Positions 26,101-50,952 of a stretch of 64,000 nt of DNA are shown one piece after another. The stretch covers positions 153,209 through 217,208 of the forward strand of contig OW818670.1 in the NCBI GenBank assembly GCA_942493215.1, written 5' to 3'. This DNA comes from an uncultured Bacillota bacterium (GTDB lineage Bacteria; Bacillota_I; Bacilli_A; RF39; UBA660). Every line of letters begins with the position of its first letter. The stretch's first letter is position 1. The notes beneath the pieces are model-generated. The model saw only the letters and a program-made list of their open reading frames with translations. It ran no database searches and was not told the DNA's origin. A program made the position numbers and the translations under genes.

Positions 26101-26176
26101 TGGCGCCTAATGTAGGACTCGGACCTACGACCTATCGGTTAACAGCCGAGTGCTCTACCAACTGAGCTAATTAGGC
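26101..26176 (-). tRNA. tRNA-Asn (GTT), CCA encoded
   Basis: The reverse complement GCCTAATTAGCTCAGTTGGTAGAGCACTCGGCTGTTAACCGATAGGTCGTAGGTCCGAGTCCTACATTAGGCGCCA folds as a cloverleaf. The anticodon loop is cuGUUaa. Confidence 0.9.
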
Positions 26177-26270
26177 ATTTCGCATTCAAGACTATTTCAT
26201 TATATAATCTTTTTTTAGATTTGGCAATAGTTTTGAATGCATTTTTTTAATTTTTTATAGGAAAATGCTA

Positions 26271-27149
26271 TTATAAATGCTTATCTTCTGGTCTTACTGT
26301 CATTAAATCATTAAAAGCTTCTTCAATGATATTTAAAATCATCTTATCGATCCTATAATTAGCTTCATTTTCAACCATATTCTTATGTAATAAAAAGTAA
26401 TCATATAAATTATTTTTAGTTGTTGGTGAAACATTTTGTAAGCATGACCATAAGTAACACCCTTTTAAAGTAGCTATTCCTATTTTTTTATAATCAGTTA
26501 ATTTGTATGTCAATAACCACGATATTTCTTTTAAAGCTATCTCTGAGGCTGTTAATTCTAAAGCTGCATCATATTTTGGGATGCCTGCCTTCTTTTCCGA
26601 TTGCCATTTTAAATTTATTTTAAAATTATAGTTAAGATAATTATCCTCTACAATAGGATTAGTATAACTACTAATATATTTTAAACGTAAGAATAAATGC
26701 CAAAGATAGGGATTATCCATATTTTTAAAACATTCTTCTGTATATTTTAAAAAATAACAAATAAGATAAGAACGTAATTGAAAAGAAATATATTCTTCTC
26801 TATCCGATGGAACTAACATTCTGGCATTATTAGTAAGCATTCTTATATACAATAAAGATATTGGCTGTTTACAAAGAAGTCTATCTATATCATAATATTT
26901 TACTTGTTGATCAAGATTATTACCAATAAAACTAGTGATATCAGGAAGTCCAGCTTGAAATATAGGGTTATAGCAAAGTTCTAATTTTTCGTATTCCCTT
27001 TTATTTTTGATATCAAAAATATTTTTCTCAACTTCTGGACCATCAATATTATGATCAAGATCCAAATACATTCTTTGATTATAATAATATAAATCAGCGC
27101 ATATAATTTGGCCTATTTCAATTAATTTCTCTATATCAACAACCGCCAT
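26271..27149 (-). CDS. Hypothetical protein (292 aa)
   Basis: ORF with no recognisable motif, next to tRNA-Asn. Confidence 0.45.
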   Translation of the reverse strand: MAVVDIEKLIEIGQIICADLYYYNQRMYLDLDHNIDGPEVEKNIFDIKNKREYEKLELCYNPIFQAGLPDITSFIGNNLDQQVKYYDIDRLLCKQPISLLYIRMLTNNARMLVPSDREEYISFQLRSYLICYFLKYTEECFKNMDNPYLWHLFLRLKYISSYTNPIVEDNYLNYNFKINLKWQSEKKAGIPKYDAALELTASEIALKEISWLLTYKLTDYKKIGIATLKGCYLWSCLQNVSPTTKNNLYDYFLLHKNMVENEANYRIDKMILNIIEEAFNDLMTVRPEDKHL

Positions 27150-27203
27150 AATATCACTTCCTTAAGGAGTTTCTATTATAGCAAAAATTGATTATAAGTC
27201 AAG

Positions 27204-28946: not shown

Positions 28947-28948
28947 AA

Positions 28949-30379
28949 TTACCTCTTTTCTATTTCTTCTTTCATTAACTTCATCGTTAAATCTGGATTA
29001 GCTTGACCTTTAGTTTCTCGCATAACCTGCCCCACTAAATAGTCAATTATTCTTGTTGCACCACTCTTATATTGAGTTACAACTTCTGGATGTTTATCAA
29101 CAATACTCTTAACAATATCTCTTATTACATCATCATTAGCCATCTGTTTAATATCTTTTTCTTTAACGATTATAAGAGGATCTTTATTAGTGTCTAAAGC
29201 CTCATATAAGACTTCTTTACCCTGCTTTATAGAAATAGTCCCATTACTTACTAAACTAATTAAAGAAGATAGCATTAATGGCGTAAGATAAATATCATTA
29301 ATATTTAAATCATTCTTATGTAAATGACTTAAAATTATACCTGTTATCCAATTAGACGCTAATTTAGGGTCGCTGTTTTTAAGACATTCTTCATAATATA
29401 AAGCAATACTTTTATCTCTTACTAAAATAGTGGCATCATATCTAGATAAACCATATTTATCAATATAGATATTAGCTCGTTCATATGGTAAAACCGGTAT
29501 TTCTTTTCTTATTTCATCTAAAAATTCTTGTTCTATTTTAATAGGAGGAATATTAGGTTCAACATAGTACTTATAATCAACCGCATCGACTTTACTACGC
29601 ATTGGATACGTTTTCATATCTTCAGAATCAAAGCGTCTTGTTTCCTGAATAATCTTACCACCAGACTCTAATATTTCGGTTTGTCTTTTTATTTCATATT
29701 CAATCGCTAATTTAACATTACCAAACGAATTAATGTTTTTCATTTCGACTTTAGTACCTAATACCGTATCTGTATCTTTCATTAAGGAAATATTAACATC
29801 ACTACGCATCTGACCTAAATCACTACGGGCTTCTGACACATCACAATAAAGAAAGATATTACGTAATGACTCTAAAAAAGTAATAGCTTCTTCGGCTGAA
29901 TACATACAGGGTTCCGTAACTATTTCCATTAGAGGAATTCCCGAACGATTATAATCAATTAAAGAATAATTACCGAAATGATCTAAACTAGCCGTATCTT
30001 CTTCTAAATGTAACTGATGAATATCAACTTTCTTATCCATTCCATTAACATTTATCATTAAGTATCCATTCTTGCCCATCGGTTTAGTTACTTGGGTAAT
30101 CTGGTAGCCTTTAGGAAGATCAGGATAAAAATAATTCTTCCGATCAAACATTACAACATCAGGATTATTACAATTTAAAGCGATAGCAGTTTTTAAAGAT
30201 TTTCTAACAGCTTCTTTATTAATAACTGGTAGAATACCTGGTAAACCAATGTCAACTGGTGCCACATTAGTATTAGGATCACTTGAATAACTATTAGTTG
30301 ATGATGAAAAGTTTTTTGACTTTGTTTTTAACTCACAATGGACTTCTAATCCAATAACTACTTTATACATTAGCATCAC
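28949..30379 (-). CDS. gatB: Asp/Glu-tRNA amidotransferase subunit B
   Basis: VIGLEVHCEL N-terminus and GatB/YqeY C-terminal domain. Confidence 0.95.
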   Translation of the reverse strand: MMLMYKVVIGLEVHCELKTKSKNFSSSTNSYSSDPNTNVAPVDIGLPGILPVINKEAVRKSLKTAIALNCNNPDVVMFDRKNYFYPDLPKGYQITQVTKPMGKNGYLMINVNGMDKKVDIHQLHLEEDTASLDHFGNYSLIDYNRSGIPLMEIVTEPCMYSAEEAITFLESLRNIFLYCDVSEARSDLGQMRSDVNISLMKDTDTVLGTKVEMKNINSFGNVKLAIEYEIKRQTEILESGGKIIQETRRFDSEDMKTYPMRSKVDAVDYKYYVEPNIPPIKIEQEFLDEIRKEIPVLPYERANIYIDKYGLSRYDATILVRDKSIALYYEECLKNSDPKLASNWITGIILSHLHKNDLNINDIYLTPLMLSSLISLVSNGTISIKQGKEVLYEALDTNKDPLIIVKEKDIKQMANDDVIRDIVKSIVDKHPEVVTQYKSGATRIIDYLVGQVMRETKGQANPDLTMKLMKEEIEKR

Positions 30380-31823
30380 CTCTAGCCGTTATATTCTTAT
30401 AGCCTAATACTTCTTCTATTTTATTGGCCATATTTAAGACCAATGCATCATCTTTTACTCGACCCGTTATATTAATCGCAATGGGCATCATATTGATAAA
30501 CCCATTAGGTAGGGTAATACTAGGAAATCCTCCAAAATTACCAATTACTAAATGATTTTCTAATAATAAATAGCGATCAGATAATTGATCATTTTTTGTA
30601 CCAAACTTAGGAGCTGGACCCCCACTAGCTGGCATAATTAAACCATCATATACTTTAAATAATTCATTAATCTTATCTACTATCATATGTCTTACTCGAC
30701 CAGCATTTAAAAATAATTTTTCTTGATTTTCTTTTTGTAAAATATAACTACCTAGTATAAATCGTCTTTTAATAAGTTCCGAAAATCCTTTATTACGAGC
30801 ATTAAACATTATTTCATCAATACTATTTCCCTCACCTCGTGGTCCATATAGAATACCTGTTAAATTAGCATTATTACTAGTTGCTTCCGCACATGAAATA
30901 GTCATATAGACAGGATATAAAGCATTAAATAAATTCTTATCTATGTTAACACCCTCAACAATAAAGCCAAGGTCTCGACATTTATCTAAAGTCTTGTGAA
31001 ATACTTCTAATGTTTGTTTCAATTCATCATCTGGATCTTGATAATACTCTAATTCACAAGCTTCTTTTAAATAAAATAGTTTTTTACCTTTAATATCACT
31101 GTTAATACTATCAGCATACACTTTACCATCATCTGATAAACTTGTCATATCATTTACATCTTTTCCCTTTAAAACATCAACAACATAAGTAATATCTAAT
31201 ACATTACGAGCAAATATTCCCACATGATCAAGACTAGAAGCAAAGGGAAATAAACCATATCTTGATATTAAACCATAAGTGGGCTTAAAACCTACGACTC
31301 CTCCAAATGCTGCTGGCTTACGAACTGAATCGCCTGTATCTGATCCAATACTAAATGGTACTATATCTAAAGCAACACTAGCGGCACTTCCGGCTGATGA
31401 TCCACCTATTAAGCAACTATCATCCCAGGGATTTTTTACTACCCCCGTATGACCAGTTGTACCAGTTCCCCCCATTGCTAATTCATCTAGTACAGTTTTA
31501 CCAATTAAGACAGCACCAGCCTCTTTTAATTTCTTATAAACAGTTGCATCATAGACTGGAACATAATCTTTTAATATATTAGATGAAGCTGTTGTTAATA
31601 TACCTTTAGTTGAATAATTATCCTTTATAGCATAAGGAATGCCACTTAAAATACTATTACTTTTTTGTTCTTCCATTTCATCCATAATGGTAATAAAAGA
31701 ATTGTATTTTTCTTGATATACATAAGCTAAACTTTTAGCTTCCATAAAAGCCGAAAAACTAGTTATTTCTTTACTATCCAATTTACTTCTTAAATTACTA
31801 ATAGATTTTTCTGAATAATTCAT
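30363..31823 (-). CDS. gatA: Asp/Glu-tRNA amidotransferase subunit A (amidase signature family)
   Basis: Amidase signature GGSSGGSAA-like (GGSSAGSAASVA) with the Ser-cisSer-Lys triad region. Confidence 0.95.
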   Translation of the reverse strand: MNYSEKSISNLRSKLDSKEITSFSAFMEAKSLAYVYQEKYNSFITIMDEMEEQKSNSILSGIPYAIKDNYSTKGILTTASSNILKDYVPVYDATVYKKLKEAGAVLIGKTVLDELAMGGTGTTGHTGVVKNPWDDSCLIGGSSAGSAASVALDIVPFSIGSDTGDSVRKPAAFGGVVGFKPTYGLISRYGLFPFASSLDHVGIFARNVLDITYVVDVLKGKDVNDMTSLSDDGKVYADSINSDIKGKKLFYLKEACELEYYQDPDDELKQTLEVFHKTLDKCRDLGFIVEGVNIDKNLFNALYPVYMTISCAEATSNNANLTGILYGPRGEGNSIDEIMFNARNKGFSELIKRRFILGSYILQKENQEKLFLNAGRVRHMIVDKINELFKVYDGLIMPASGGPAPKFGTKNDQLSDRYLLLENHLVIGNFGGFPSITLPNGFINMMPIAINITGRVKDDALVLNMANKIEEVLGYKNITARGDANV

Positions 31824-32124: not shown

Positions 32125-32390
32125 CTAGCATTAAAAAAACAGCAATTCAAAATCCCTTGCAGGGACGAATTACTGTTGTATCCGCGGTACCACCCTAATT
32201 ATCATTATTCATGATCTACTTAATTCTAACAAATCTAGTAATATGATAACGGATTACATTCCGACTTACACTACTAACCTCTTCGTATAAGTAACTCAGG
32301 AGCGTTTTTCATTAATATCTTATTGTTAGCTTCCACCTATTCTAACTCGCTTTAAATAAAAATATCATTACTCTTTCCTTCGCAGTCGTT
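32125..32390 (-). promoter_or_regulatory. T-box riboswitch leader of the gatCAB-aspS operon
   Basis: Minus-strand transcript from a TTGACA-17-TATAAT promoter (32425..32397). It carries a stem I start with a GA/AGAGUA kink-turn motif (GCGAAGGAAAGAGTAATGA). It carries the conserved T-box sequence AATTAGGGTGGTACCGCGG (32196..32178). It ends in a terminator helix (ACAGTAATTCGTCCC/GGGATTTTGAATTGCTGT) plus a U-run that overlaps the antiterminator. A candidate specifier is GAA-AAC-G (Asn) in ATGAAAAACGC. Confidence 0.8.
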
Positions 32391-32459
32391 AAAAGCATTA
32401 TAGAGTAATTTCCATAATATGTCAAGTATATATTTTTAGTATTAATATTATAGTTACTT

Positions 32460-39051: not shown

Positions 39052-39675
39052 TTACTTTTTACTAACTAAATATCTTAATACTGTTTTTAATTTAGTAGGA
39101 TCAGCTTTTCTGGCATCAGAAAGATAGATTTCTCGATGTCTTAATGTCTTAATAACTAAATTATTATCATTAATAAACTTTTTCATTTGTTCAAAAGTTT
39201 TAGATTCACTATCATAAGAACCAATATGTAACATTTGAACAACTAATCCTTCTTCCATATTCTCTAATCTTACTGCATTAAATAAAGGACTATCATTCTT
39301 CTTTTTAACTAATTCTATCGCTTTATTAAATACATCAGGCGTAACAAAACAGGGTTGTCTAATCATAATTGTATATAGTAATTCATCTTTATTTAAAGTA
39401 GTACTTTTTTTGCCTTCTTCTGTTAAATCCCATAAACCTTCTAAAGGATATACTTGATAATCAAAATAACCATCAGGAGTATAACCTTTTCTTGGCATCA
39501 TTTTAATCGTATAAGATAATTGATATAATACTTCTACTCTTTTACCAAAATCAGGATTATTAGGATTACCTTCTCCATTTATCATTAAGAATTGGAATGA
39601 GGGAATCGTTACTAATTCAGGTTTTTCTTTAGGTAAATAAAACTGTTTTTCAACTTTCTTCCATTCCTGTTTCAT
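39052..39675 (-). CDS. GyrI-like small-molecule-binding domain protein
   Basis: 207 aa with the length and composition pattern of GyrI-like effector-binding domains. Confidence 0.55.
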   Translation of the reverse strand: MKQEWKKVEKQFYLPKEKPELVTIPSFQFLMINGEGNPNNPDFGKRVEVLYQLSYTIKMMPRKGYTPDGYFDYQVYPLEGLWDLTEEGKKSTTLNKDELLYTIMIRQPCFVTPDVFNKAIELVKKKNDSPLFNAVRLENMEEGLVVQMLHIGSYDSESKTFEQMKKFINDNNLVIKTLRHREIYLSDARKADPTKLKTVLRYLVSKK

Positions 39676-39689
39676 ATTGTCTCCTTTAA

Positions 39690-40403
39690 CTATAATCCAA
39701 AAAAAGTACTAGCAATAAGATTTTTATCAGGATAATTAGCATTATGCATTGTCTGTTCAAATTTAGAACGATCATAAGTAACTTCTTTTTTCTCAATCCT
39801 ATAATCATTATCATTAATTGTTAATATCACATAATGTGTTAGATTGTTTATTGTACAACCACTACTACCAACATCATAGCCCTTTTTTGAGTCACCATCT
39901 ATTACCAATTCACTATGCTCATGACCAAAAAAGATGATATCACATTCTTCTGACTTGATTATTTCTTTAATTAAGCCATCTCTTAATATTTCCAGTGAAT
40001 GAAAAGGATAACCATCCGTCGAATCTTTATTAATTAAAAAATGCTTGAAACCAATAAGATAATTATTTATCTTTAAATTATATTCAAGATTACATTTTAA
40101 TAAATACTCTCTATGTTTATTATCTAAATTACTAGCCACCCATCTTTGATGTTCCTTTTGACGATCTGATAATTCATCATCAACTTGTATACCCTCAATA
40201 AAGTATAACTCATGATTACCAAATAACATTCGAATATTATTGTTAATAATCAAATCTAAACATTCCCTAGGATTAGGACCAATAGCTAGAACATCACCTA
40301 AACATATTACTTCATCAAACTTATTTTTATTAATATCATTTATAATAGCTTCTAAGGCCTGAAAATTAGAATGAATATCGGAAAATATTGCCACTTTATA
40401 CAT
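39690..40403 (-). CDS. Metallophosphoesterase (YfcE/MJ0936-like)
   Basis: IFSDIHSN...GDVLAIGP...GNHE...GHEH motifs. Confidence 0.8.
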   Translation of the reverse strand: MYKVAIFSDIHSNFQALEAIINDINKNKFDEVICLGDVLAIGPNPRECLDLIINNNIRMLFGNHELYFIEGIQVDDELSDRQKEHQRWVASNLDNKHREYLLKCNLEYNLKINNYLIGFKHFLINKDSTDGYPFHSLEILRDGLIKEIIKSEECDIIFFGHEHSELVIDGDSKKGYDVGSSGCTINNLTHYVILTINDNDYRIEKKEVTYDRSKFEQTMHNANYPDKNLIASTFFGL

Positions 40404-40417
40404 CTTATCACCTACTA

Positions 40418-40972
40418 TTAAAAATTTCTAACATTATTATCATACTCTTGAAAAGAAGATATTCTAAAACCATCCGTCGAATCAATGGCTATGACTTTCA
40501 TATTTTTTAAACCCTTTACTAATAAAGCTGTTTTATACATATGATCATACCAATCATCAATATTATCATCTTCTTCAGTAAACCATTCTTTCTTCTTCCC
40601 TCGCTCAAATATAGTTTCTAAATCACTAAATAAGAATATTACTTCATAATCAATATTAGGTAGTCTCTCAATTAATCTTCCAACTAGATTATTATCAAAA
40701 TCAACATTCTGACCCTTTATTAACATAATAGTATTATTATTTCTATTATTTTCTTCTATTACCCGATCAATAATTTCTACTCTTCTATCACCAATTGGAT
40801 CATTTTCGCTTTGTTTTATATAATCAATGCTTTCTTGAATTGCCAAAATATGATGGTTAATCCACCCTAATTCGGTAAGCAGGTTAACGTCATCTTTAGT
40901 AACCATTCTTTTGATAAAAGTACTTTTACCAGCAGCTGAACACCCAAATACCCATACTACCTTATTACTCAT
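40418..40972 (-). CDS. P-loop NTPase / small-molecule kinase-like protein
   Basis: Walker A GCSAAGKST at the N-terminus. 184 aa. Confidence 0.6.
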   Translation of the reverse strand: MSNKVVWVFGCSAAGKSTFIKRMVTKDDVNLLTELGWINHHILAIQESIDYIKQSENDPIGDRRVEIIDRVIEENNRNNNTIMLIKGQNVDFDNNLVGRLIERLPNIDYEVIFLFSDLETIFERGKKKEWFTEEDDNIDDWYDHMYKTALLVKGLKNMKVIAIDSTDGFRISSFQEYDNNVRNF

Positions 40973-41003
40973 AATATCACCTACTGTAATAATAACATAA
41001 TTA

Positions 41004-42140
41004 TTAAATATTTACTATATTATTTAGTTGCTCTACTTTATCAAGTTTCTCCCAATTAAAAATATCGCGTCCAAAATGTCCACCTACAGCTGTTTGCAAA
41101 TAAACAGGTTTTGTCAAATCTAAGGTTTTAATTATCCCCCTCGGTGTCAAATCAAAATTAGTCTTTATAATCTCTAATATCTTATCTTTTGATATCTTTT
41201 CAGTATTAAATGTTTCAATAAATATTGATAATGGCTCCACCATACCAATCCCATAACTTAATTGTAATTCACATTTATCACATAATTTAGCCGCTACAAT
41301 ATTTTTAGTAATATATCTAGCCATATAAGAAGCACTACGATCTACTTTGGTAGCATCTTTGCCACTAAAACACCCGCCACCAATTCGGGCCATACCACCA
41401 TATGTATCAACCACTATTTTTCTACCCGTTAATCCGGTATCACCAAGTGGTCCTCCAATAACAAATCTCCCGGTTGGATTAATATAATATTTATAATTGG
41501 TATTCATATGATACTTCTTAACAATTTCATCCATAATATGTTCTTTAATAAAAGTCTTAAATTCTAACTCACTATAATCTTCATTATGTTGAATCGACAT
41601 TAACATATTATCAATTTTTAAATTAGTAGGATCACTATAATCAATCGTAACTTGACTTTTCATATCTGGTCTTGCATCTAAAAACGTCTTGTTTTTACGA
41701 AGGGTGGTCGCCAATAAAATAAGATCATGAGCAATCGATATAGGTAAAGGCATATAGTTACTAGTTTCATTGGTAGCATATCCAAACATTATGCCTTGAT
41801 CTCCAGCACCGCCACTATCAACACCAAGCGCAATATCACTTGATTGTTCATTAATAACTACTTTTACTTCACAAGTATTACCATCAATTCCCCATTCTTC
41901 ATTTTGATAACCAACATCACATATAACCTTTCTAGCAACTTTTTCATAATCAATAGTGGTATTAACTCTAACTTCTCCCCCAATAATTAATAAGTCAGTT
42001 GTAATGTAGCACTCACACGCAACACGAGCATGTGGATCATGCTTTAGACATTCATCTAAGATAGCATCACTTATTTGATCACATAACTTATCAGGATGTC
42101 CTTCCGAAACTGATTCGGATGTAAATAATATTTTTTCCAT
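41004..42140 (-). CDS. metK: S-adenosylmethionine synthetase
   Basis: LFTSESVSEGHPDK N-terminus and a GGGAFSGKD-like motif (GGGCFSGKDATKVDRSASY). The start was moved to ATG 42140, after GAGGAAAG. Confidence 0.95.
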   Translation of the reverse strand: MEKILFTSESVSEGHPDKLCDQISDAILDECLKHDPHARVACECYITTDLLIIGGEVRVNTTIDYEKVARKVICDVGYQNEEWGIDGNTCEVKVVINEQSSDIALGVDSGGAGDQGIMFGYATNETSNYMPLPISIAHDLILLATTLRKNKTFLDARPDMKSQVTIDYSDPTNLKIDNMLMSIQHNEDYSELEFKTFIKEHIMDEIVKKYHMNTNYKYYINPTGRFVIGGPLGDTGLTGRKIVVDTYGGMARIGGGCFSGKDATKVDRSASYMARYITKNIVAAKLCDKCELQLSYGIGMVEPLSIFIETFNTEKISKDKILEIIKTNFDLTPRGIIKTLDLTKPVYLQTAVGGHFGRDIFNWEKLDKVEQLNNIVNI

Positions 42141-42164
42141 TTTCTTTCCTCTCTCTAACAATAA

Positions 42165-42305
42165 AAAAACTTCCCAGAGAGGAAAGTTTGCTAAAACTTT
42201 CTCTCATTGTTCATAGTTATACTATGCTAAGTAAGGCACCTTCTTTATCCAAGGGTTGCCACTGGATCAACGATCTTCATCTTCCCAGTTCTTAATAAGA
42301 GTCTT
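42165..42305 (-). promoter_or_regulatory. SAM-I (S-box) riboswitch with terminator, in the metK leader
   Basis: The minus-strand leader starts CTCTTATTAAGAACTGGGAAGATGAAGATCG...CCAGTGGCAACCC...AAGGTGCC. This resembles the S-box consensus (CTCTTATCAAGAGxGGxGGAGGGA...GATGA...GGCAACC...GGTGCC). It ends in the hairpin AAACTTTCCTCTCTGGGAAGTTT plus a U-run. Promoter TTGACA-17-TAAAAT lies at 42349..42321. Confidence 0.7.
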
Positions 42306-42440
42306 TTTAATTGTAATTAGATTTTAACACTTAATAATTTTAATGTCAATAAAAAATAAACAAGTTAATAACCTGTTTATTCTAAAATTATTATCTTCTT
42401 AATTTGTGAAAGAAAGGTTTAGTCTCTTCTACTTGTTGTG

Positions 42441-43235
42441 TCATTTTTTCTTCTTCGCTTCAATTATATATGAAGCTACATAATCTTCAATGTTACCATC
42501 TGGTACCCACGAATTTATTATCTCTCTAGTATTATCTTTTGGATATAATTTTATATCAATAAAGCCTGACTCTTTAAGCATTACTTTAATGTTTTCTACA
42601 TACTCAGCTCCAGCAATACATCCAGACATCATTCTTAAATCTTGTTTAATTTTTTCTGGCAACTCAGCAGTAGCTACAACATCAGATATTGATAATCTAC
42701 CATCATTTTTTAATACTCTAAATGCTTCTTTAAATACTTTTTCTTTTTCCAAAGATAAGTTTATTACACAGTTTGATATAATTACATCTATTGATGAATC
42801 CTCTACAGGTAAATTCTCAATTTCGCCTAATCTGAATTGTACATTGTCATACTTTGACTTTATTGCATTTGCCCTTGAAAGTTTTATCATTTCAGGTGTC
42901 ATATCTACTCCAATAACTAATCCTGTTGAACCTACTTTTCTTCTTGCGAGGAAACAATCAAATCCACCACCACTACCAAGGTCTAAAACTGTTTCTCCTT
43001 CTTTAAGACTTGCTATTACAATGGGATTACCACATCCTAAACCCATATTGGATTCCGTTGGGACACTTGAAATATCGTTTTCATTGTATCCAATATTTTT
43101 AGATATTGATTCTATGTCTTGTTGTGTATCACCACAGCAACAGCCTCCACCACAACAGCCTTGAGCTTCTTTTTTTGCTATATTCGCATAATTATTACGA
43201 ATATGTTCTCTTAATTCTTCTTTACTTTCTTTCAT
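42441..43235 (-). CDS. arsM: Arsenite S-adenosylmethionine methyltransferase
   Basis: N-terminal Cys cluster (GCCGGGCCCG), SAM-binding motif VLDLGSGGGFDCF and conserved catalytic Cys residues (ISNCVINLS, MSGCIAG). The start is ATG 43235, after AAGGAG. Confidence 0.8.
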   Translation of the reverse strand: MKESKEELREHIRNNYANIAKKEAQGCCGGGCCCGDTQQDIESISKNIGYNENDISSVPTESNMGLGCGNPIVIASLKEGETVLDLGSGGGFDCFLARRKVGSTGLVIGVDMTPEMIKLSRANAIKSKYDNVQFRLGEIENLPVEDSSIDVIISNCVINLSLEKEKVFKEAFRVLKNDGRLSISDVVATAELPEKIKQDLRMMSGCIAGAEYVENIKVMLKESGFIDIKLYPKDNTREIINSWVPDGNIEDYVASYIIEAKKKK

Positions 43236-43280
43236 AATGTTCTCCTTTTTACTTATGAACACTAACATTCATTTATTAAT

Positions 43281-45020
43281 CTACAGTTCAATTAATTTAT
43301 CTCCCTTTATTTCTTCCGGATTCCAACTAATCACTGCAAAGTTTCCTTTAGAATGGGAATTTACTTTATTTATCCATTCTATTTCATTACTTGCCTTTGC
43401 TTTTAAAATCTTATTTGTAGTGCCAGTTTTATACAATGACGAATTTATAACCCACCACTTACTTGATATTCCGGCTCTTTTTAAATCTTCTTCTAATCTC
43501 ATTGCTTCAAATACAGGCGTTGTCTCAGCTAAGGTTACAATTATTACTTCTGTCTCATTTGCATTTCTTAATCGTGGAAGTAGTTTTTTTACTGATTCTG
43601 GTATATCACCATGAGACCTCTGTATTTCTTTATGATAACTTTGAGTAGAATCTAAAAGTAATAAAGTATGTCCGGTTGGTGCTGTATCAATAACTACAAC
43701 TTCTTCATCAGCTTTCTCTACAAGTTCAGCAAACCTTCTAAATACCGCTATTTCTTGTGTGCAGGGCGACTTCAAGTCTTCTTCTACATAAGCTATATCT
43801 TCGACTGACATTGTTTCTTTTGCCTTTGATAGAACTTCTTCTTTATATTTTTGGAGTTCTTCGTGTTCATCAATATGGCTTATAGTAATTAAACTATAAT
43901 TCTTCATAAGCAAATTTAAATGATTGGCTGGGTCAGTTGTGGTGAGATGTACTTTTTGACCTTTATTAGCTAATCCTAAGGCAATGGCACAGGCTACTGT
44001 AGTTTTTCCTACTCCACCTTTGCCCATCGTAAATATAACTTTTTTATGAGAATTATATATGTCATCTATTACATCATGCAAACTAAGTATATTTTCAGTT
44101 TGTAATGTCTCAACATTACTATCTAATATGTCATGTGTTAAAAATGCTCTCACATTATTTATTCCAGTAATATTATATGCTCTTAATGGAACTGCATATA
44201 TTTCCTTATCTTTTAATCCATTAGGCATACTGGCAAGAGCTTTTTGCTGCTTACGATATAATCCTTCTGAAATAGAATCATCAAATCCCTGTAATACCCC
44301 ATTTATAATCATAATTTGATTGTTTATGCCTAAATCAGAAAGTTCCTTTGATGCTCTTTCAGCTTCAATAAGAGGTGTTGAATCAGGTTTTGAAACAATA
44401 ATCAATGTTGTTTTTTCTTTATCAGCTAATGTATTTACCGCTTTTTTATATATCTCTTTTCTTTCTTCTAGCCCAGATAATTGACCAAGACAAGAAGCTC
44501 CATGAGTACTCTCACTAATAAAATTACTCCATGCTGATGGCAATTGTAACATTCTTAATGTATGTCCGGTTGGTGCTGTATCAAAAATAACATAATCATA
44601 TTCTTTTTCTATATTCTCATCTGCAATAAAATTAGAGAACTCATTGAAAGCAGCAATTTCTACTGTACATGAGCCTGATAATTGCTCTTCCATATTTTTA
44701 ATTACTACTTCAGGCAATTTGCCCCTATATGGTGCAATTACGCTTTCTCTATATTCTTCTGCTGACTTTAAGGGGTCAAGATTGATGACTGTTAAATTAT
44801 GTACACCTTTTATTTGAGTTTTCTTATTGCTTAATTCCATTTCAAATACATCTTGCAAATTAGAGGCAGGGTCAGTACTTATTAGCAAAACGCTTTTACC
44901 ACTATCGGCAATGCTTACAGCAGTTGCACAGGCAGTAGAAGTTTTACCAACGCCACCTTTACCAGTATAAAATAAATATTTTGTAAGCTTTATATTGTTA
45001 GGATTAAATGATTTATTCAT
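43281..45020 (-). CDS. arsA: Arsenical pump-driving ATPase ArsA (two-domain)
   Basis: Duplicated halves, each with a P-loop GKGGVGKT and DTAPTGHTL. ATG 45020 follows GGAGG and overlaps the arsD stop (TAATG). Confidence 0.92.
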   Translation of the reverse strand: MNKSFNPNNIKLTKYLFYTGKGGVGKTSTACATAVSIADSGKSVLLISTDPASNLQDVFEMELSNKKTQIKGVHNLTVINLDPLKSAEEYRESVIAPYRGKLPEVVIKNMEEQLSGSCTVEIAAFNEFSNFIADENIEKEYDYVIFDTAPTGHTLRMLQLPSAWSNFISESTHGASCLGQLSGLEERKEIYKKAVNTLADKEKTTLIIVSKPDSTPLIEAERASKELSDLGINNQIMIINGVLQGFDDSISEGLYRKQQKALASMPNGLKDKEIYAVPLRAYNITGINNVRAFLTHDILDSNVETLQTENILSLHDVIDDIYNSHKKVIFTMGKGGVGKTTVACAIALGLANKGQKVHLTTTDPANHLNLLMKNYSLITISHIDEHEELQKYKEEVLSKAKETMSVEDIAYVEEDLKSPCTQEIAVFRRFAELVEKADEEVVVIDTAPTGHTLLLLDSTQSYHKEIQRSHGDIPESVKKLLPRLRNANETEVIIVTLAETTPVFEAMRLEEDLKRAGISSKWWVINSSLYKTGTTNKILKAKASNEIEWINKVNSHSKGNFAVISWNPEEIKGDKLIEL

Positions 45021-45391
45021 TAACAACAGCCTCCGCCACCACAACATCCATTATTTTTTTTAGGCAATATTGTATTAGGCATATCAATTGTTACTCCTAA
45101 TAAGTTTAACATTTCTTCATTAGTAGGATATCTTCCTTCAATAACAATCTTTTCATCAACCATAATTATTGGAAATTTGTCTACACCATTTTTGTTTATA
45201 AATTCATTTACTTCTTTATTATTAACAAAAGCTTGAGGCGAACTAGATAAATTATATCTTTCTACTATAACTCCCATTTTACTTAAGCTGTTAATCACAG
45301 CTGATATTCTTATTAATTCAGGGTCAACACCTACTCCACATAAACCAGTAGAACAGCACATAGCTGGCTCAAATATTTTCATTTTTTTCAT
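45020..45391 (-). CDS. arsD: Arsenic metallochaperone/repressor ArsD
   Basis: MKIFEPAMCCSTGLCG N-terminus with Cys12/13/18. C-terminal Cys-rich tail NGCCGGGGCC. Translationally coupled to arsA. Confidence 0.85.
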   Translation of the reverse strand: MKKMKIFEPAMCCSTGLCGVGVDPELIRISAVINSLSKMGVIVERYNLSSSPQAFVNNKEVNEFINKNGVDKFPIIMVDEKIVIEGRYPTNEEMLNLLGVTIDMPNTILPKKNNGCCGGGGCC

Positions 45392-45461
45392 AACAAATCT
45401 CTCCTTTTTCATTTTTTTCATCTATATAATTAAAAGCATCAATATAATATGAGTTCATATA

Positions 45462-45764
45462 TTATTTGCAGATACAATCATCTTTTTCATTAGAAATATA
45501 TTGAATGAACTTATTTAATTCATCAATGGTATATTTATTTAAACTGTAATATACCCAGTTTATTTCCTTTCTTGCTATAACTAATTTAGCATCTATTAGA
45601 GTTTTCATATGATGTGAAAGTGTTGGTTGTGTTATATTGAGCTTCTCTAATATCCTACAAGCACACATTTCTCCACATGATAACATATCAATTATCTGCA
45701 ATCTATTATTATCTGACAGTGCCTTAAATATTAATACTTTTTTTTCATTATTCTTTTTATTCAT
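45462..45764 (-). CDS. arsR: ArsR-family arsenic-responsive repressor
   Basis: Metal-binding/HTH region LSCGEMCACRILEKLNITQPTLSHHMKTL. First gene of the cluster. Confidence 0.85.
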   Translation of the reverse strand: MNKKNNEKKVLIFKALSDNNRLQIIDMLSCGEMCACRILEKLNITQPTLSHHMKTLIDAKLVIARKEINWVYYSLNKYTIDELNKFIQYISNEKDDCICK

Positions 45765-45774
45765 ACTTTATTCT

Positions 45775-45850
45775 CCTTCATTGATAACTATCTATATAGA
45801 CTTACATCTATATTATATGCAACATCTGTACAAAATGCAACACTATATCA
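45775..45850 (-). promoter_or_regulatory. ars promoter with a putative ArsR operator
   Basis: Minus-strand TTGCAT-17-TATAAT followed by the inverted repeat TATAGA-tgtaag-TCTATA between the promoter and the arsR start. TGTTGCAT occurs twice. Confidence 0.45.
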
Positions 45851-45913
45851 AGAATAAGTTATAATTTAGAAAATAAAAAGATACGTATATACGTATCTTT
45901 AAATTTCAAAATT

Positions 45914-45989
45914 GGTGTCCCCTGGGAGGCTCGGACTCCCGACCCACTGATTAAGAGTCAGTTGCTCTACCAACTGAGCTAAGGAGACA
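45914..45989 (-). tRNA. tRNA-Lys (CTT)
   Basis: The reverse complement TGTCTCCTTAGCTCAGTTGGTAGAGCAACTGACTCTTAATCAGTGGGTCGGGAGTTCGAGCCTCCCAGGGGACA folds as a cloverleaf with the anticodon loop cuCUUaa. CCA does not appear to be encoded. Confidence 0.85.
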
Positions 45990-46130
45990 TAAATATTTAG
46001 TACTAACTAAATAATACTTTTTTATTATATCACATTGTTACAACTTTGGAATACTAAAAATTACTTTTTTACATAAATTTAATTGTATTATTGATTAATC
46101 AATTATATAATTAAGCTAGGAGGAATATAA

Positions 46131-47087
46131 ATGAAGCTAAAATTAACTAAAAAGCAATTAATTGTTGGTATCATTGCCTTATTCTTTCTTATTGGTAGTA
46201 CTATTACAACAACAGTAATTATTAAAAACTATAAACATAAGACTAATAATAATATTGATACTACTAATAATGATAATACTAAAGATAATACAGATGAAAA
46301 TACTAATAAAGAAGATGAAAAACCTGAAGAAGATAATTTTACTATTAGTATTGATGGTAAAGAAGTATGTAGTTCAATATATGGACAATGTTTATATACA
46401 CCTAGATATTATATAACCAGAGATACAACTACTGCTAATATTGTTGTTACGACTAATCTAAAAGGTTATGAGATCTATCCTACTACTAGTTATAGTTTAA
46501 AGAGTGGTTTAAACAATATTGTTTATGGTAAAGATAGTAATAAAAAAGAGTTGTCTTTAGATCTATATTTAATTAATAATACTTTATCTGATAATAAAAT
46601 CGACATAAATGATACAGTAAACAATATTACCAGTGTGTTCATAAATTATGATTATGGTTTTAGTACTGATTTTGATAGCTATTTAATCGATAATGTTATG
46701 ATTACTAGTGATAATCATGAGAAATTTATTAAGTGCGCTAAAGATGAATGTAAAGATATGACTAGTCTTAAAAAATACTTTATGGATAAATATTATATGA
46801 GTGAGCGATTAATTGAAGAACTTATTAATAATGCTACTAAGAATGGTTATATTAAGGTTGAAGATAATGTTATATATTTTAAAGGCTATATTATTGGTTA
46901 TGAAGATAGTTATTCATATAATTTCTATAAGACATATAAAGATAATGATAATATATATATAATAATTGATTTAAATGATAACAATGATAATAATAAATAT
47001 AATAGTAGTTATATAGTAAAGTTAATAAAAGTAGATGATAAATATAGTATCGATGATTATGATTATATTGGTACAAGAATAGAATAA
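46131..47087 (+). CDS. Hypothetical membrane-anchored extracellular protein (318 aa; N-terminal TM then an Asn/Asp/Thr-rich low-complexity linker)
   Basis: ORF with a good SD (AGGAGG) upstream, located between tRNA-Lys and tRNA-Val. Followed by a hairpin/T-run terminator (AAAGGACAATAAATTGTCCTTTTTT). Confidence 0.6.
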   Translation: MKLKLTKKQLIVGIIALFFLIGSTITTTVIIKNYKHKTNNNIDTTNNDNTKDNTDENTNKEDEKPEEDNFTISIDGKEVCSSIYGQCLYTPRYYITRDTTTANIVVTTNLKGYEIYPTTSYSLKSGLNNIVYGKDSNKKELSLDLYLINNTLSDNKIDINDTVNNITSVFINYDYGFSTDFDSYLIDNVMITSDNHEKFIKCAKDECKDMTSLKKYFMDKYYMSERLIEELINNATKNGYIKVEDNVIYFKGYIIGYEDSYSYNFYKTYKDNDNIYIIIDLNDNNDNNKYNSSYIVKLIKVDDKYSIDDYDYIGTRIE

Positions 47088-47119
47088 AAGGACAATAAAT
47101 TGTCCTTTTTTAATATTAA

Positions 47120-47196
47120 TGGTGAACGATGTAGGATTCGAACCTACGACCTCTACCACGTCAAGGTAGCGTTCTAACCAACTGAACTAATCGTCC
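47120..47196 (-). tRNA. tRNA-Val (GAC), CCA encoded
   Basis: The reverse complement GGACGATTAGTTCAGTTGGTTAGAACGCTACCTTGACGTGGTAGAGGTCGTAGGTTCGAATCCTACATCGTTCACCA has the anticodon loop uuGACgu. Confidence 0.85.
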
Positions 47197-47254
47197 ATAT
47201 GTATTATTTTACCTTATATGATAAATATATGCAAGAAAAAAGATAAGATTTTTC

Positions 47255-47842
47255 TTATCCAATTATTCTTCGATACTGTCCTTCTTTTAATCTCTTAACG
47301 ACCATATCCATCGCATCTACCATTGGTATACTAGGATCCTCTAAACGGGTATACACTAATTGGTTAACAAGATTAATAAATCTATCATCTAAATCTACTA
47401 ATTTACTACTTACACCACTTTTTTGATTATACATTTCATATTTGCCTAAAATCGTAAGATGAGGTATATGATATAATAAATCATATGTATCATAAAAATC
47501 TTTTAGTTCACCATTTTCTCTAAGATATTTAATTTGATTAATAACCGTTAGAGGCGCTACTATTAATAAACCTAGATATCCCATATTAACAAACCCATCC
47601 TCGGTATTAATTGGATAATCATAATCTAAATTAGTAATAGCATAGTCTATTTCTGAAAATACGGATTGGGCTTTAGCAATAAAGTTTCCAGCCACTTCAG
47701 GAGTTACTCTTCTAAATTGATTAAGTACTCTTCTGTGAGCTAATACTTTTTCTTGATTGGGTGTTAAAGATAATTTAAAAAGTTTAGAAGTACATATTTG
47801 ACAATAATGTAGTTCTCCCTTTATTTGTTCATTCAACTTCAT
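47255..47842 (-). CDS. Hypothetical protein, paralog family member 1 (195 aa)
   Basis: Shares the C-terminal signature RFINLVNQLVYTRLEDPSIPMVDAMDMVVKRLK with the two upstream genes. Confidence 0.6.
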   Translation of the reverse strand: MKLNEQIKGELHYCQICTSKLFKLSLTPNQEKVLAHRRVLNQFRRVTPEVAGNFIAKAQSVFSEIDYAITNLDYDYPINTEDGFVNMGYLGLLIVAPLTVINQIKYLRENGELKDFYDTYDLLYHIPHLTILGKYEMYNQKSGVSSKLVDLDDRFINLVNQLVYTRLEDPSIPMVDAMDMVVKRLKEGQYRRIIG

Positions 47843-47869
47843 AACAACGCTGCTTTCTATTTTTATATA

Positions 47870-48439
47870 TTAATTTAATGTTGTAGGCTTTTTTTCTTTA
47901 CAAAATTTCTTGGGTATATTATTAATTATTCTAAACATTGCCTCTTCCATAGGCATATCAGGACTATCTAGACGTAATTGTACTAGTTCATTAACAATAT
48001 CATTGAACATAGGATTAAATGCTCTTAAATCAGAACTAATACCATCTGTACGCTCATTTGATAAATTATATTCATTAGTATCACAAGGAAAATATACATA
48101 TTTAGTGCCACAAAGACTCTTAAAGATATCTGCCAAAACGTCTTTATCGCCTCTTTTACACCTACTAATACCTTTACTTACTATTCCACCAAGTTCCGTA
48201 AGATATATTAATCCATGGGCTGTATCACAGCCATAATCATCTGGACAATGAAAACTAACATAAGAATATTTTGCATCAGCATTCACATCATCCAATGCTC
48301 TTTGAACTTCTATTATAAAATCGGCAGCTAAACCAGCATTAACATGTCTAAACTCTCTTAATATCTTTTTTTCTTTTAAATTTTTATGTCTACTTAATAA
48401 TTTAGCTTTTGATTCCTGATAATAATGCATTAAACCCAT
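47870..48439 (-). CDS. Hypothetical protein, paralog family member 2 (189 aa)
   Basis: C-terminal signature MFNDIVNELVQLRLDSPDMPMEEAMFRIINNI. Carries the N-terminal motif LSRHKNLKEKKILREFRHV...FIIEVQRAL shared with the family. Confidence 0.6.
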   Translation of the reverse strand: MGLMHYYQESKAKLLSRHKNLKEKKILREFRHVNAGLAADFIIEVQRALDDVNADAKYSYVSFHCPDDYGCDTAHGLIYLTELGGIVSKGISRCKRGDKDVLADIFKSLCGTKYVYFPCDTNEYNLSNERTDGISSDLRAFNPMFNDIVNELVQLRLDSPDMPMEEAMFRIINNIPKKFCKEKKPTTLN

Positions 48440-48447
48440 ATTATCAT

Positions 48448-49674
48448 CTATCCTTTCTTTGCTTCTGATAGAGTTCTAACTTTTAATGTCATTCGCTTCT
48501 TTAAAAGATCTATAGCTTTATTAAAAACCTCCTCCATAGATATATCTGGCTCATCTAAACAAATCTTTACTAAATCATTAAAGATTGTTTTAAATTCCAA
48601 ATTATGCATTAATAATTTCTGATTAAGTCCATTTTTTGTTGTATACATATCATAATAACAATCAGAATCAAAGCTAAAATAATCTACTCTTGATAGATTA
48701 AAAACCTGTTCATATACTTTACATTGATCACCTGGCTTGTAGTAAACGCCTTTACAAAAGCCTATATGATTAGCTGGAATTATATACTTCATAGACGAAA
48801 AAATGGTATTTATGTTTGATTTTGGATTAGCAATAGTTAAGTCTCTGGCTTCAAATTTCTCATCGGCTATAACTGATTTAGCATTAGCAATAAATTGTGC
48901 AACCATATCACAATCCATATTTTTAAATCTTTGTAATACTCTTATTTGTCTTAATTCTGCTTCTTGTTGTGGTGTCATATATAATCTTAATTTGTTTTTA
49001 ATAATTAATGATATATTATGTAAGAAATCATTATTATCAAATAATTCTACCTCATTACCAGTTATTTTTTCACCTGTTTTTAATTCGTTAATAACTAGTT
49101 TCATAGCAAAACCCATTGATATACTAGGTCTTTCTAATCTTACTTCAATTAAACGTTTAACTAGGTCTTCAAATCTTGCATCAAATTTTATTAATTGGGA
49201 ATTAATTTTACCATCATTATATAAGTTATAACCAAAATCAAAAATAAATTGAAAACCATTAATACGTTCTAAATAGTCATCTATTTGAGAAACATTTTCA
49301 AAATTTTTTCTATCTTTTTCATCTTGGTCAATTACAACATTTAGTTCACTTTTTCTATCAGCAGGAATAATAATTGTTTTTGTTAATGGCGTATTTATTA
49401 AGCCCTGATTATCATCATTTTTTGCTATTCCATAAGGAGTATAAAAAGCTTTATATCTCTTACCTTTATCACTTTTTTCTTGCTCAAAAAAATTTTTAGC
49501 TTCCACTATAAAATCGTTCATTAAATATGAATCAACAAATTGAAACTCACGTAAAATTATGGCTTTAGCTTTTCTTAATCCTTCGACCGATTTATCTTCT
49601 TGTGTAGGTATACCTAAAGTTCCTTTTATTTTTATCCCTAAATCAGATAAATTATACTTTTTTAAAATTTTCAT
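48448..49674 (-). CDS. Hypothetical protein, paralog family member 3 (408 aa; two tandem copies of the family domain)
   Basis: Two repeats. Each has the N-terminal RxLxxFxxVxxxxAxFI motif and a C-terminal FxDLVKxLIExRLExPxISMxxAM motif (RFEDLVKRLIEVRLERPSISMGFAMKLV and IFNDLVKICLDEPDISMEEVFNKAI). Own promoter (TTGACA-17-TATCAT) and SD. Confidence 0.6.
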   Translation of the reverse strand: MKILKKYNLSDLGIKIKGTLGIPTQEDKSVEGLRKAKAIILREFQFVDSYLMNDFIVEAKNFFEQEKSDKGKRYKAFYTPYGIAKNDDNQGLINTPLTKTIIIPADRKSELNVVIDQDEKDRKNFENVSQIDDYLERINGFQFIFDFGYNLYNDGKINSQLIKFDARFEDLVKRLIEVRLERPSISMGFAMKLVINELKTGEKITGNEVELFDNNDFLHNISLIIKNKLRLYMTPQQEAELRQIRVLQRFKNMDCDMVAQFIANAKSVIADEKFEARDLTIANPKSNINTIFSSMKYIIPANHIGFCKGVYYKPGDQCKVYEQVFNLSRVDYFSFDSDCYYDMYTTKNGLNQKLLMHNLEFKTIFNDLVKICLDEPDISMEEVFNKAIDLLKKRMTLKVRTLSEAKKG

Positions 49675-49699
49675 ATCCTCACATATCCCCCATTCTTAA

Positions 49700-49735
49700 T
49701 AGTATATGATATATCTAATTCTGATTATTGTCAAT
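49700..49735 (-). terminator. Rho-independent terminator after ddl
   Basis: Minus strand: AAGATAAG-atatg-CTTATCTT followed by TTTTTT. Confidence 0.6.
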
Positions 49736-49755
49736 TAAAAAAAGATAAGCATATC

Positions 49756-50952
49756 TTATCTTAATTTTCCCTTCATTCCTTTTGAACCTTTTACTCCCTT
49801 TAAGCCATTATGACAGCTTAATATATTAGTATTAAATGAATTAATCTTTTTAGCATTGTTTTTATATTCTTTGATAGCTAAAGTAATTAAATCATCTAAT
49901 AGAGTATGATATTCTTTACCAGCTGCATCCCATAAGTAGAAAGATAAAGATCCTGGAATGGTATTTGGTTCATTAACATAGATATGATTGCTTTTTTTAT
50001 CAACCAAGAAATCAATACGGCATACACCACTTAAGTTTAAAGTTGTGAATGTTTTCTTCGCTAAATCTTTTATTTCTTCAGTCATCTTTTCATCTATTTT
50101 AGCAGGAATAATACGATTAGTTGAAGCCATACCTTTAGACTTACCACCTTTAGTATTACCCAAATATTTATCTCTATATGTTAAGAATTCATCCGCACTT
50201 ATTACTTGTTCTAAAGCACTAGTTTCCTGATATTCATAATTGCCTAATACACTACAATTGATTTCCATTAAGTTTTCAACTTTTTTCTCAATGACAACCT
50301 TTGTATCATATTTTATAGCTTCCAAAACGGCTTCATCTATTTTATCTTCATCTTTAACAATGGTTATACCAATACTACTACCAAGTGTTGCTGGTTTTAC
50401 TACAACTGGATAACCTAACTTTTTAATATCTTTTAGAATATGCTCATTATTAGTTAAATACTCTGTATCATAGAACCATACATATGGAACATAAGGAATA
50501 CCTGTTGCTTCCATTATCTGTTTCATAACCACTTTATCTTGTCCTAAAGCTGATCCTAAAACATTACTTCCAACATATGGAACACCAACCGTTTCTAAAT
50601 AACCTTGTAATGATCCATCTTCTACATTATTACCATGAACAATTGGTAGAATAACATCAATATCACTAATTTCTTTTTTAGAAAATCCCGTTATTCTTTG
50701 TAAAACATAACGGTCATCTTTTTTACATAATACCACACGATTGGCAAATCTTTTTAAATTTTCAAAATCACGATAAATATCTAAATCAGCTAACATATGA
50801 CCAGCATACCAAATTCGATCTTTACTAATATAAATAGGTATTACTTCATATTTTTCAGCATCCATACTTTTAATTGCTTGAATAGCCGATATTATACTTA
50901 CCTCATGTTCAACTGTTTCTCCACCAAATATTACACCAACTTTAATTGCCAT
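49756..50952 (-). CDS. ddl: D-alanine--D-alanine ligase
   Basis: ATP-grasp fold with conserved Ddl N-terminal (VIFGGETVEHEVSI) and C-terminal motifs. About 30 extra residues of Gly/Lys-rich C-terminal tail. Confidence 0.9.
   Translation of the reverse strand: MAIKVGVIFGGETVEHEVSIISAIQAIKSMDAEKYEVIPIYISKDRIWYAGHMLADLDIYRDFENLKRFANRVVLCKKDDRYVLQRITGFSKKEISDIDVILPIVHGNNVEDGSLQGYLETVGVPYVGSNVLGSALGQDKVVMKQIMEATGIPYVPYVWFYDTEYLTNNEHILKDIKKLGYPVVVKPATLGSSIGITIVKDEDKIDEAVLEAIKYDTKVVIEKKVENLMEINCSVLGNYEYQETSALEQVISADEFLTYRDKYLGNTKGGKSKGMASTNRIIPAKIDEKMTEEIKDLAKKTFTTLNLSGVCRIDFLVDKKSNHIYVNEPNTIPGSLSFYLWDAAGKEYHTLLDDLITLAIKEYKNNAKKINSFNTNILSCHNGLKGVKGSKGMKGKLR

Follow-up and report, generated by a model that had tools for sequence, protein, structure and literature searches.

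Can an arsenite ATPase be of use in an operon that encodes no arsenite pump, and is it by chance that the methyltransferase gene closing this operon lies beside the gene that supplies its methyl donor? Both questions are raised by a 64-kb stretch of contig OW818670.1 from an uncultured Bacillota bacterium (hereafter, the window), in which arsR, arsD, arsA and arsM are placed between a tRNA-Lys(CTT) gene and the unit formed by an S-adenosylmethionine (SAM) riboswitch (S-box) and metK. The explanation that we consider probable, though far from certain, is that these genes form an arsenite-inducible arsRDAM operon working with a pump encoded in trans, that arsRDA is a mobile unit to which arsM was appended, and that metK is a chance neighbour.

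The arsRDAM Operon

All four ars genes are intact, lie on the minus strand and encode proteins scoring above the curated family cutoffs, which bears out the identities proposed in the preliminary description. The product of arsR (45462-45764, 100 amino acids (aa)) matches Pfam HTH_5 and NF033788 (89.7 bits against a cutoff of 55), and that of arsD (45020-45391) matches PF06953 (156.7 bits) and NF033727 (132 bits, cutoff 90). The two-domain ArsA (43281-45020, 579 aa) reaches 832 bits with TIGR04291 (cutoff 650), while ArsM (42441-43235, 264 aa) reaches 354 bits with NF008823 (cutoff 263). The arsD open reading frame (ORF) spans 45020-45421; its start is likely at 45391, giving MKKMKIFEPAMCC behind the ribosome-binding site AAAGGAG.

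The stop-start overlap TAATG between arsD (TAA, 45022-45020) and arsA (ATG, 45020-45018) had been described earlier and is real, with the single base 45020 shared by both genes. The arsA-arsM spacer is 45 nt long and contains the arsM ribosome-binding site; since it has no terminator, arsM is likely co-transcribed with arsA. As judged from these sequences, arsRDAM is a real and presumably arsenite-responsive operon comprising a repressor, a chaperone, an ATPase and a methyltransferase.

ArsA has both P-loops, GKGGVGKTS in the N-terminal half and GKGGVGKTT in the C-terminal half, and a DTAPTGHT motif in each half (FDTAPTGHTLRML and IDTAPTGHTLLLL). Its segments SGSCTVEIAAF, GASCLGQLSG and KSPCTQEIAVF align to LSGACTTEIAAF, DASCLGPLAG and HSPCTEEIAVF of PDB 9nbl, and the protein also matches E. 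coli ArsA (PDB 1f48, E = 1.1e-147). We take the three metalloid-binding cysteines in these segments to be the equivalents of Cys113, Cys172 and Cys422 of the R773 enzyme, all of whose catalytic and metalloid-sensing residues thus appear to be present. In ArsD, the equivalents of Cys12, Cys13 and Cys18 are found in PAMCCSTGLCG (motif MCCxxxxC), and the protein ends in NGCCGGGGCC, its cysteine-rich tail being GCCGGGGCC.

In ArsM, the segments LGCGNP, SNCVINL and SGCIAGA align to Cys72, Cys174 and Cys224 of CmArsM (PDB 4fr0; PDB 5evj was also aligned), and a further cysteine cluster, QGCCGGGCCCG at residues 26-36, falls outside the region aligned to PDB 4fr0. By its sequence, the arsM product is a short As(III) SAM methyltransferase of the clostridial type. 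The Cys-Gly clusters of ArsD and ArsM had been called unusual, a view that does not survive comparison, because both are family-wide traits: an N-terminal cluster of the type GCC(G/S)GGC(S/C)C occurs in 102 of the 120 best ArsM homologues, and a tail with at least three cysteines in 64 of the 76 ArsD ORFs surveyed. The tail GCCGGGGCC recurs unchanged in L001, L002 and L175, three related loci described below. The nucleotide likeness between the ArsD tail and the ArsM cluster (74% identity over 38 nt) was considered as a trace of recombination and rejected, since the same peptide written with the same codon bias accounts for it and the motifs are family-wide.

The putative ars promoter and ArsR operator (45794-45840, minus strand) were read directly from the sequence. 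A -35 box TTGCAT (45840-45835) is separated by a 17-nt spacer from a -10 box TATAAT (45817-45812), which is overlapped by the perfect 7-bp inverted repeat ATATAGA-N6-TCTATAT (45813-45794). The core of this region, GTTGCATATAATATAGATGTAAGTCTATATAGAT, is kept in the window and in the three related loci L001, L003 and L175 considered below, and we infer that the palindrome is the ArsR operator. The ArsR motif LSCGEMCAC, conserved in L175, aligns to the alpha-3 segment of CzrA in CzrA/SmtB structures; its counterpart in pI258 ArsR is LSCGELCAC. The repressor, being pI258-like with an alpha-3 cysteine site, probably sits on the palindrome and would be released upon As(III) binding. ArsD would then capture As(III) and pass it to the ArsA ATPase, while ArsM may use SAM to methylate the As(III) left in the cytoplasm.

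Origin of the arsRDA Cassette

The genes arsR-arsD-arsA comprise a discrete cassette of 2.5-2.7 kb, which is 78-90% identical at the nucleotide level in three other contexts of AT-rich Bacilli. These are represented by L175 (from JGI metagenome 3300038985), L001 (GCA_050259235.1; grouped with L002) and L003 (GCA_028693965.1). L003 is a metagenome-assembled genome (MAG) of Bacilli; L001 belongs to a MAG labelled Ignavibacteriales, yet it has 25% GC (guanine + cytosine) and LtaS and sigma-factor neighbours. In blastn alignments, the block common to L175 covers 43287-45958 (2672 bp, 89.7% identity) and includes the 3' part of tRNA-Lys, its terminator, the promoter/operator and arsRDA; with L001/L002 (87%) and L003 (78%) the alignment is shorter (43282-45823). 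Homology ends at the arsA stop codon in every relative. The flanking genes are different in L175, L001/L002 and L003, and neither arsM nor a pump gene accompanies the cassette in any of them.

In a tree built by neighbour joining from 85 ArsA sequences, those of the four cassettes fall together in one clade. Three independent comparisons within this clade gave ratios of nonsynonymous to synonymous substitution rates (dN/dS) of 0.06-0.12 for arsA, 0.18-0.26 for arsD and 0.09-0.18 for arsR, and this strong purifying selection indicates that arsRDA are working genes and not relics. ArsA is 93-95% identical in amino acids to the proteins of the other genomes (arsA dS 0.42-0.50), whereas MetK has no match better than 85% identity among about 15 billion proteins, and the closest metK with available DNA differs by a dS of 1.0 or more. 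As a rule MetK is conserved no less than ArsA, and the difference therefore argues for a relatively recent horizontal exchange of the cassette. Among viral contigs, one distant arsA (71%) was found and nothing matched the tRNA-Lys fragment described below.

The tRNA-Lys gene (anticodon CTT; 45913-45988, minus strand; found by ARAGORN and by Rfam with 64.6 bits) is followed by an intrinsic terminator hairpin (45877-45900, minus strand; AAAGATACGTATATACGTATCTTT and a T-run), which was called by the terminator scan and is kept in L175. The ars cluster does abut the 3' side of this gene, as was noted before. At its left end, the block common to the window and L175 begins with the 3' ~46 nt of the window tRNA-Lys (45958-45913). 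L175 itself has no 5' half of the tRNA; its sequence covers just the 3' ~47 nt (anticodon loop through CCA), and neither ARAGORN nor Rfam called a tRNA in this fragment. Compared with the window tRNA-Lys, the fragment has changes in two T-stem pairs (GGGAG/CTCCC to TGGGG/CCCCA); these changes are compensatory, which implies that the ancestor of the fragment was a functional tRNA.

Imperfect direct repeats of about 200 nt lie on both sides of the L175 cassette (1011-1209 and 3909-4095; 72.9% identity, E = 6e-25). Each repeat consists of ~135 nt of non-tRNA sequence, a segment similar to the tRNA-Lys 3' half and a terminator; the downstream repeat is decayed, and a Rfam scan of L175 revealed no family matching the repeats. 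Around the L001 cassette there are direct repeats of about 100 nt (~9084-9177 and 11751-11847), and the motif AAGCA..AATAAA..TAAGCAC is common to the repeats of L001 and L175.

On the simplest reading of these data, arsRDA would be cargo carried by a small cassette that has no integrase, is flanked by attachment (att) sites, resembles cis-mobilisable elements (CIME) and derives from integrative elements that target tRNA-Lys. Such a cassette would circulate among very AT-rich Bacilli in association with att-like repeats of tRNA-Lys origin, and the copy in the window, directly behind an intact tRNA-Lys, would have lost its distal repeat. Another scenario, in which tRNA-Lys-arsRDA is ancestral and the tRNA was later split in L175 by a different element, was considered and found weaker, because it cannot account for the second L175 repeat downstream of arsA. 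A classical tRNA island is not demonstrated in the window, which has neither integrase nor distal repeat. Hence the earlier proposal of an island at tRNA-Lys finds support as regards arsRDA, and this support comes from comparison with other loci (the shared block and the repeats of L175 and L001) and not from what can be seen in the window.

The base composition of the region requires a similar distinction. Its GC content is indeed elevated (0.31-0.33 against a window mean of ~0.285), as was reported previously, but this is no sign of foreignness. The excess in the ars genes (total GC 0.30-0.32) is confined to codon positions 1 and 2, their GC at the third position (0.17-0.22) is within the range of the other 49 ORFs (0.12-0.24), and recA (0.355) and metK (0.322) are equally or more GC-rich. 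The GC argument for an island therefore fails, and the enrichment is an effect of amino acid composition. Synonymous codon choice is, by contrast, atypical: z is -3.66 for arsA, -2.15 for arsR and -1.79 for arsM (-4.2 combined), whereas other window genes average -0.07 (standard deviation 1.4) and go no lower than -3.72. In its dinucleotide signature (delta*), 42441-45764 ranks in the top 1% of 3.3-kb windows. Composition thus carries a mild but real foreign signal, located in codon choice and dinucleotide usage and not in GC at the third codon position.

Lack of a Linked Pump

The statement that the cluster contains no arsB or acr3 is valid for the whole window. A six-frame tblastn search with Acr3, ArsP, ArsC and other ars-associated seed proteins (E<0.1) revealed no gene or relic of Acr3, ArsP or ArsC within the 64 kb, and ArsB was likewise found neither as a gene nor as a relic. 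The only ORFs with multiple transmembrane (TM) segments in this stretch encode GerAA/GerAB, PgsA, a class A penicillin-binding protein, and NfeD-like and Mur-ligase-like proteins.

To see this absence in proportion, we compared the window with 80 metagenomic loci encoding ArsA proteins 70-77% identical to its own, together with its closest relatives; neighbours were identified with TIGR00832 (Acr3, 388 bits), PF03773 (ArsP) and LMWPc (ArsC). The commonest layout is arsR-acr3-arsD-arsA-(arsC). Forty loci, the window included, are well flanked (at least 3.5 kb upstream and at least 3 kb downstream): Acr3 is encoded in 25 of them, ArsP alone in 4, and no permease in 11 (27%). In the survey of Castillo & Saier (2010, PMC2963123), 19 of 24 true ArsA genes share an operon with arsB, acr3 or arsP; among the five unlinked to a transporter, four are beside arsD, three are with arsR, and three have a pump elsewhere in the genome. 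Our counts and that survey together make pump-less arsRDA a known minority arrangement which is not remarkable in itself, and the emphasis formerly placed on the missing pump is not warranted.

In two loci of the comparison set, L094 (11847-12797) and L097 (6416-7366), a 316-aa protein with eight TM segments is encoded on the other strand, ~100 bp downstream of arsA, and Acr3 is absent; this protein could be an alternative membrane partner of ArsA.

Since ArsA alone cannot move arsenite, we suppose that its membrane partner (Acr3, ArsB or ArsP) most likely has its gene elsewhere in the ~1.49-Mb genome and is energised in trans. Detoxification may, however, proceed with no permease at all, ArsD and ArsA binding As(III) for ATP-dependent sequestration or for hand-off to ArsM, and methylated or volatile species being lost passively. 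We assign this possibility a low, though appreciable, probability. It draws on the fact that the entire ArsA clade (the window, L175, L001/L002 and L003) is without a linked pump yet under strong purifying selection. An independent arsR-arsD-arsA-sigma-arsM cluster occurs in L143 and L145 with no pump gene in the adjoining 3.3 kb upstream and 10 kb downstream, and arsM is often linked to arsDA in sister clades; these two observations keep pump-independent delivery from ArsDA to ArsM in consideration. Efficient As(III) efflux is described as limiting methylation in anaerobes (PMC9213503), which would suit an operon of this kind. The small size of the genome (1.49 Mb) is also in its favour.

To our knowledge, there is no biochemical precedent for ArsD or ArsA handing As(III) to ArsM, and this speaks against pump-independent detoxification. 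The three closest copies of the cassette have no arsM, so ArsDA function in this clade is independent of ArsM; moreover, arsM in the sister clades is usually accompanied by ArsP and/or Acr3. Earlier surveys, as summarised in PMC2963123, found a pump elsewhere in most genomes with pump-less arsDA.

Further observations concern the sigma factor of L143 (5145-5702) and L145 (2636-3193). Encoded between arsA and arsM, it is a 185-aa sigma-70 factor of the extracytoplasmic function type with a cysteine-rich C-terminus (CCELE...CKYC), which may sense arsenic or thiols.

Somewhat less probable, in our estimation, is that ArsA energises a non-canonical and unlinked membrane partner, by analogy with what has been proposed for Halobacterium NRC-1. 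There the chromosomal arsB is reported to play no part in resistance (PMC3600143), and Castillo & Saier have proposed four unrelated transporters as partners of ArsA homologues (PMC2963123). The 8-TM protein standing beside arsDA in place of Acr3 in L094 and L097, unrelated to the latter, fits this idea. Nevertheless, no conserved candidate partner is found beside the cassette in the window, L175, L001 or L003, where the neighbours differ each time.

A broader proposal is that, in this clade of AT-rich Bacilli, ArsD-ArsA has become a pump-independent cytoplasmic arsenite module carried by the integrase-less cassette associated with tRNA-Lys; in the present genome, ATP-driven capture of As(III) would then feed ArsM instead of efflux, and occasional read-through into metK would top up SAM. 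We regard it as doubtful, more so than either of the two preceding possibilities.

Proposed Acquisition of arsM and Its Proximity to metK

The arsM gene is outside the shared cassette, and its nearest homologue encodes a protein 73-75% identical to the window ArsM. In three neighbourhoods of close relatives, arsM is clustered with genes for ArsP, Acr3, thioredoxin/DsbD and MarR, and never located beside metK. We infer that arsM was acquired separately from arsRDA and later. It would have been appended downstream of arsA, at the slot held by acr3 in plasmid pCTK01 of Clostridium tyrobutyricum.

Downstream of arsM and in the same direction lie the SAM-I riboswitch aptamer (42201-42301, minus strand; Rfam RF00162, 61.6 bits against a cutoff of 44.4), the riboswitch terminator that controls metK (42189-42167, minus strand; terminator scan) and metK itself (41004-42140, minus strand; TIGR01034, 543 bits), a core gene for SAM synthetase that is a neighbour only. 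The gap between the arsM stop codon and the riboswitch is 139 nt and not 160 bp as stated initially. It contains a terminator-like AT-rich hairpin (42351-42381, minus strand; AAUAAACAGGUU-AUU-AACUUGUUUAUU followed by a U-run), and the fold of 42320-42445 has a minimum free energy of -24.1 kcal/mol (z = -3.5); the consensus terminator scan did not call this hairpin, which has too few G-C pairs. Directly 3' of it is a metK promoter of the sigma-70 type (42321-42349, minus strand; TTGACA, 17 nt, TG-TAAAAT), the best promoter-scan match in the region (11/12).

The preliminary description left open whether arsM and metK had been brought together by selection for SAM supply. A corresponding mechanism can be imagined: arsenite would induce read-through into the S-box leader, ArsM would drain SAM, and the riboswitch would open to give extra metK expression. 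ArsM does consume SAM, the two units are co-directional and 139 nt apart, and the AT-rich terminator between them was missed by the consensus scan. Nevertheless, we find this link improbable, because the proximity is peculiar to the window. The metK gene is absent from 88 ars loci (together 1.16 Mb; 14 with arsM) and from the three further arsM neighbourhoods, and no ars genes are found in five distinct neighbourhoods of the closest metK relatives. Furthermore, a near-consensus metK promoter is placed directly past the hairpin, both elements (42381-42351 and 42349-42321) intervening between arsM and the riboswitch, and the S-box-metK unit, being also present in the relatives L005 and L006, appears ancestral.

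The genes around the nearest MetK homologues (76-83% identity) differ from one homologue to the next and from those of the window, and they include neither ars genes nor a tRNA gene. In species-representative genomes, the best MetK match is that of Catenibacterium (68%, among the matches listed), and none of the MetK loci among the matches listed there shows synteny with the window or a tRNA-Lys beside metK. As the adjacency is unique to the window, and a terminator and a separate metK promoter lie between the units, it is most plausibly a matter of chance at the insertion site: S-box/metK would be an independent core transcription unit that happened to be there. As a separate observation, the window MetK is closest to those of Catenibacterium/Thomasclavelia among the matches listed.

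The idea that the operon is a decaying remnant, in which acr3 was lost and arsD and arsA persist as functionless passengers, is suggested by acr3 following arsA in pCTK01 where arsM stands in the window, but it is hardly tenable given that all ORFs are intact with all functional residues, dN/dS is low (0.06-0.26) in the pump-less clade, and the window has no acr3 relic.

Several observations weigh against the explanation that we prefer, that is, a mobile arsRDA with appended arsM, a pump in trans and a chance metK neighbour. The permease survey covered the 64-kb window of a ~1.49-Mb genome. All four members of the ArsA clade are without a linked pump, which leaves room for a pump-independent role of this clade. 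No second copy of the tRNA-Lys 3' part was found within the window with up to three mismatches allowed, and no integrase or recombinase is encoded among the window genes of 39052-50952 or on L175. The case for mobile origin is built on L175 and L001, which are short or different contigs. Finally, the arsM terminator is weak and AT-rich, so that some read-through into the S-box leader is possible.

Other Features of the Window

Between tRNA-Lys and tRNA-Val(GAC) (47196-47120, minus strand) there is a single plus-strand gene, a hypothetical one (46131-47087; 22% GC), whose product of 318 aa is rich in Asn, Asp and Lys, has one N-terminal membrane anchor and gives no Pfam match. Beyond it, three tandem genes (47255-49674, minus strand; 195, 189 and 408 aa) encode an uncharacterised domain of ~190 aa, present in two copies in the last one; the domains are 23-25% identical in pairs, have no Pfam match and show codon usage typical of the host. 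A complete gerA-type spore-germination operon, encoding GerA, a GerC-like lipoprotein and the spore permease GerAB, is located at 17053-21094 (plus strand). Taken with the small genome (1.49 Mb) and the affinities of its MetK, this operon points to a spore-former with a reduced genome that belongs in or near the Erysipelotrichales.

A T-box leader (32158-32392, minus strand) precedes a gatCAB-like and aspS-like block (26101-31823), and tRNA-Asn is situated just downstream, which suggests T-box control of the indirect Asn-tRNA pathway. The ORF at 2387-2968 (minus strand) overlaps the 3' part of the gene for RNase P class B RNA (2924-3269, minus strand), and because of this overlap its annotated start is probably too far upstream.

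Implications and Comparison with Known Systems

For annotation the outcome is largely reassuring, as the cluster is an ordinary variant of the ars operon, and the lesson is that "no pump in the operon" means neither "no pump" nor novel biology. The monophyletic pump-less arsRDA group, found in four contexts and under purifying selection, represents a natural test of ArsA acting in trans or with unknown partners. The L175 and L001 repeats suggest how small integrase-less cargo cassettes may spread among Bacilli that are anaerobic or live in the gut. Should the host genome be truly devoid of an As(III) exporter, this bacterium would be a candidate for efficient anaerobic arsenic methylation, which is of interest for arsenic speciation in anoxic habitats.

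The cassette resembles tRNA-targeting elements and CIME-like cassettes in that the L175 repeats end in the tRNA-Lys 3' half and the window cassette starts within an intact tRNA-Lys. It differs from them in that no integrase is seen, the window has no distal repeat, and the L175 repeats include ~135 nt of non-tRNA sequence.

Clusters of arsM in anaerobes (L164-L167, L127 and L150, and the Paraclostridium-type methylators treated in PMC9213503) encode short ArsM proteins (~262-266 aa) with the N-terminal GCC(G/S)GGC(S/C)C, 68-75% identical to that of the window. They contain one or two genes for ArsP, usually one for Acr3, and thioredoxin-DsbD genes, whereas the window has neither ArsP nor Acr3.

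In Halobacterium NRC-1, the most thoroughly studied analogue, arsD/arsA and arsM are carried by one region of the replicon pNRC100 (arsADRC and arsR2M) with no linked pump, as in the window (PMC3600143, PMC6205960). Both arsD/arsA and arsM contribute there to arsenite resistance, which does not require the chromosomal arsB (Wang et al. 2004, as cited in PMC3600143 and PMC6205960). The archaeal system differs, according to the descriptions in these papers, in having arsC and in dividing its genes between two operons, divergent or separate, that each encode an ArsR of their own. The window ArsA scores 416 bits with NF041417 (ArsA_halo), under the cutoff of 800, and so belongs to another NCBIfam subfamily.

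The cluster 1 ArsA loci of Castillo & Saier (PMC2963123) are similar to the window in having a two-domain ArsA beside arsD and arsR with no arsB, acr3 or arsP; in that survey's account of the pump-less loci, neither a discrete cassette with tRNA-derived repeats nor an association with arsM is described. Finally, plasmid pCTK01 (NZ_CP014171.1) has the layout arsR-arsD-arsA-acr3-arsC, while in the window arsA is followed by arsM, with no pump and no reductase. The two loci share the order arsR-arsD-arsA with ~70% nucleotide identity over 2.4 kb, arsD and arsA that abut or overlap, and the same types of ArsR and ArsD.

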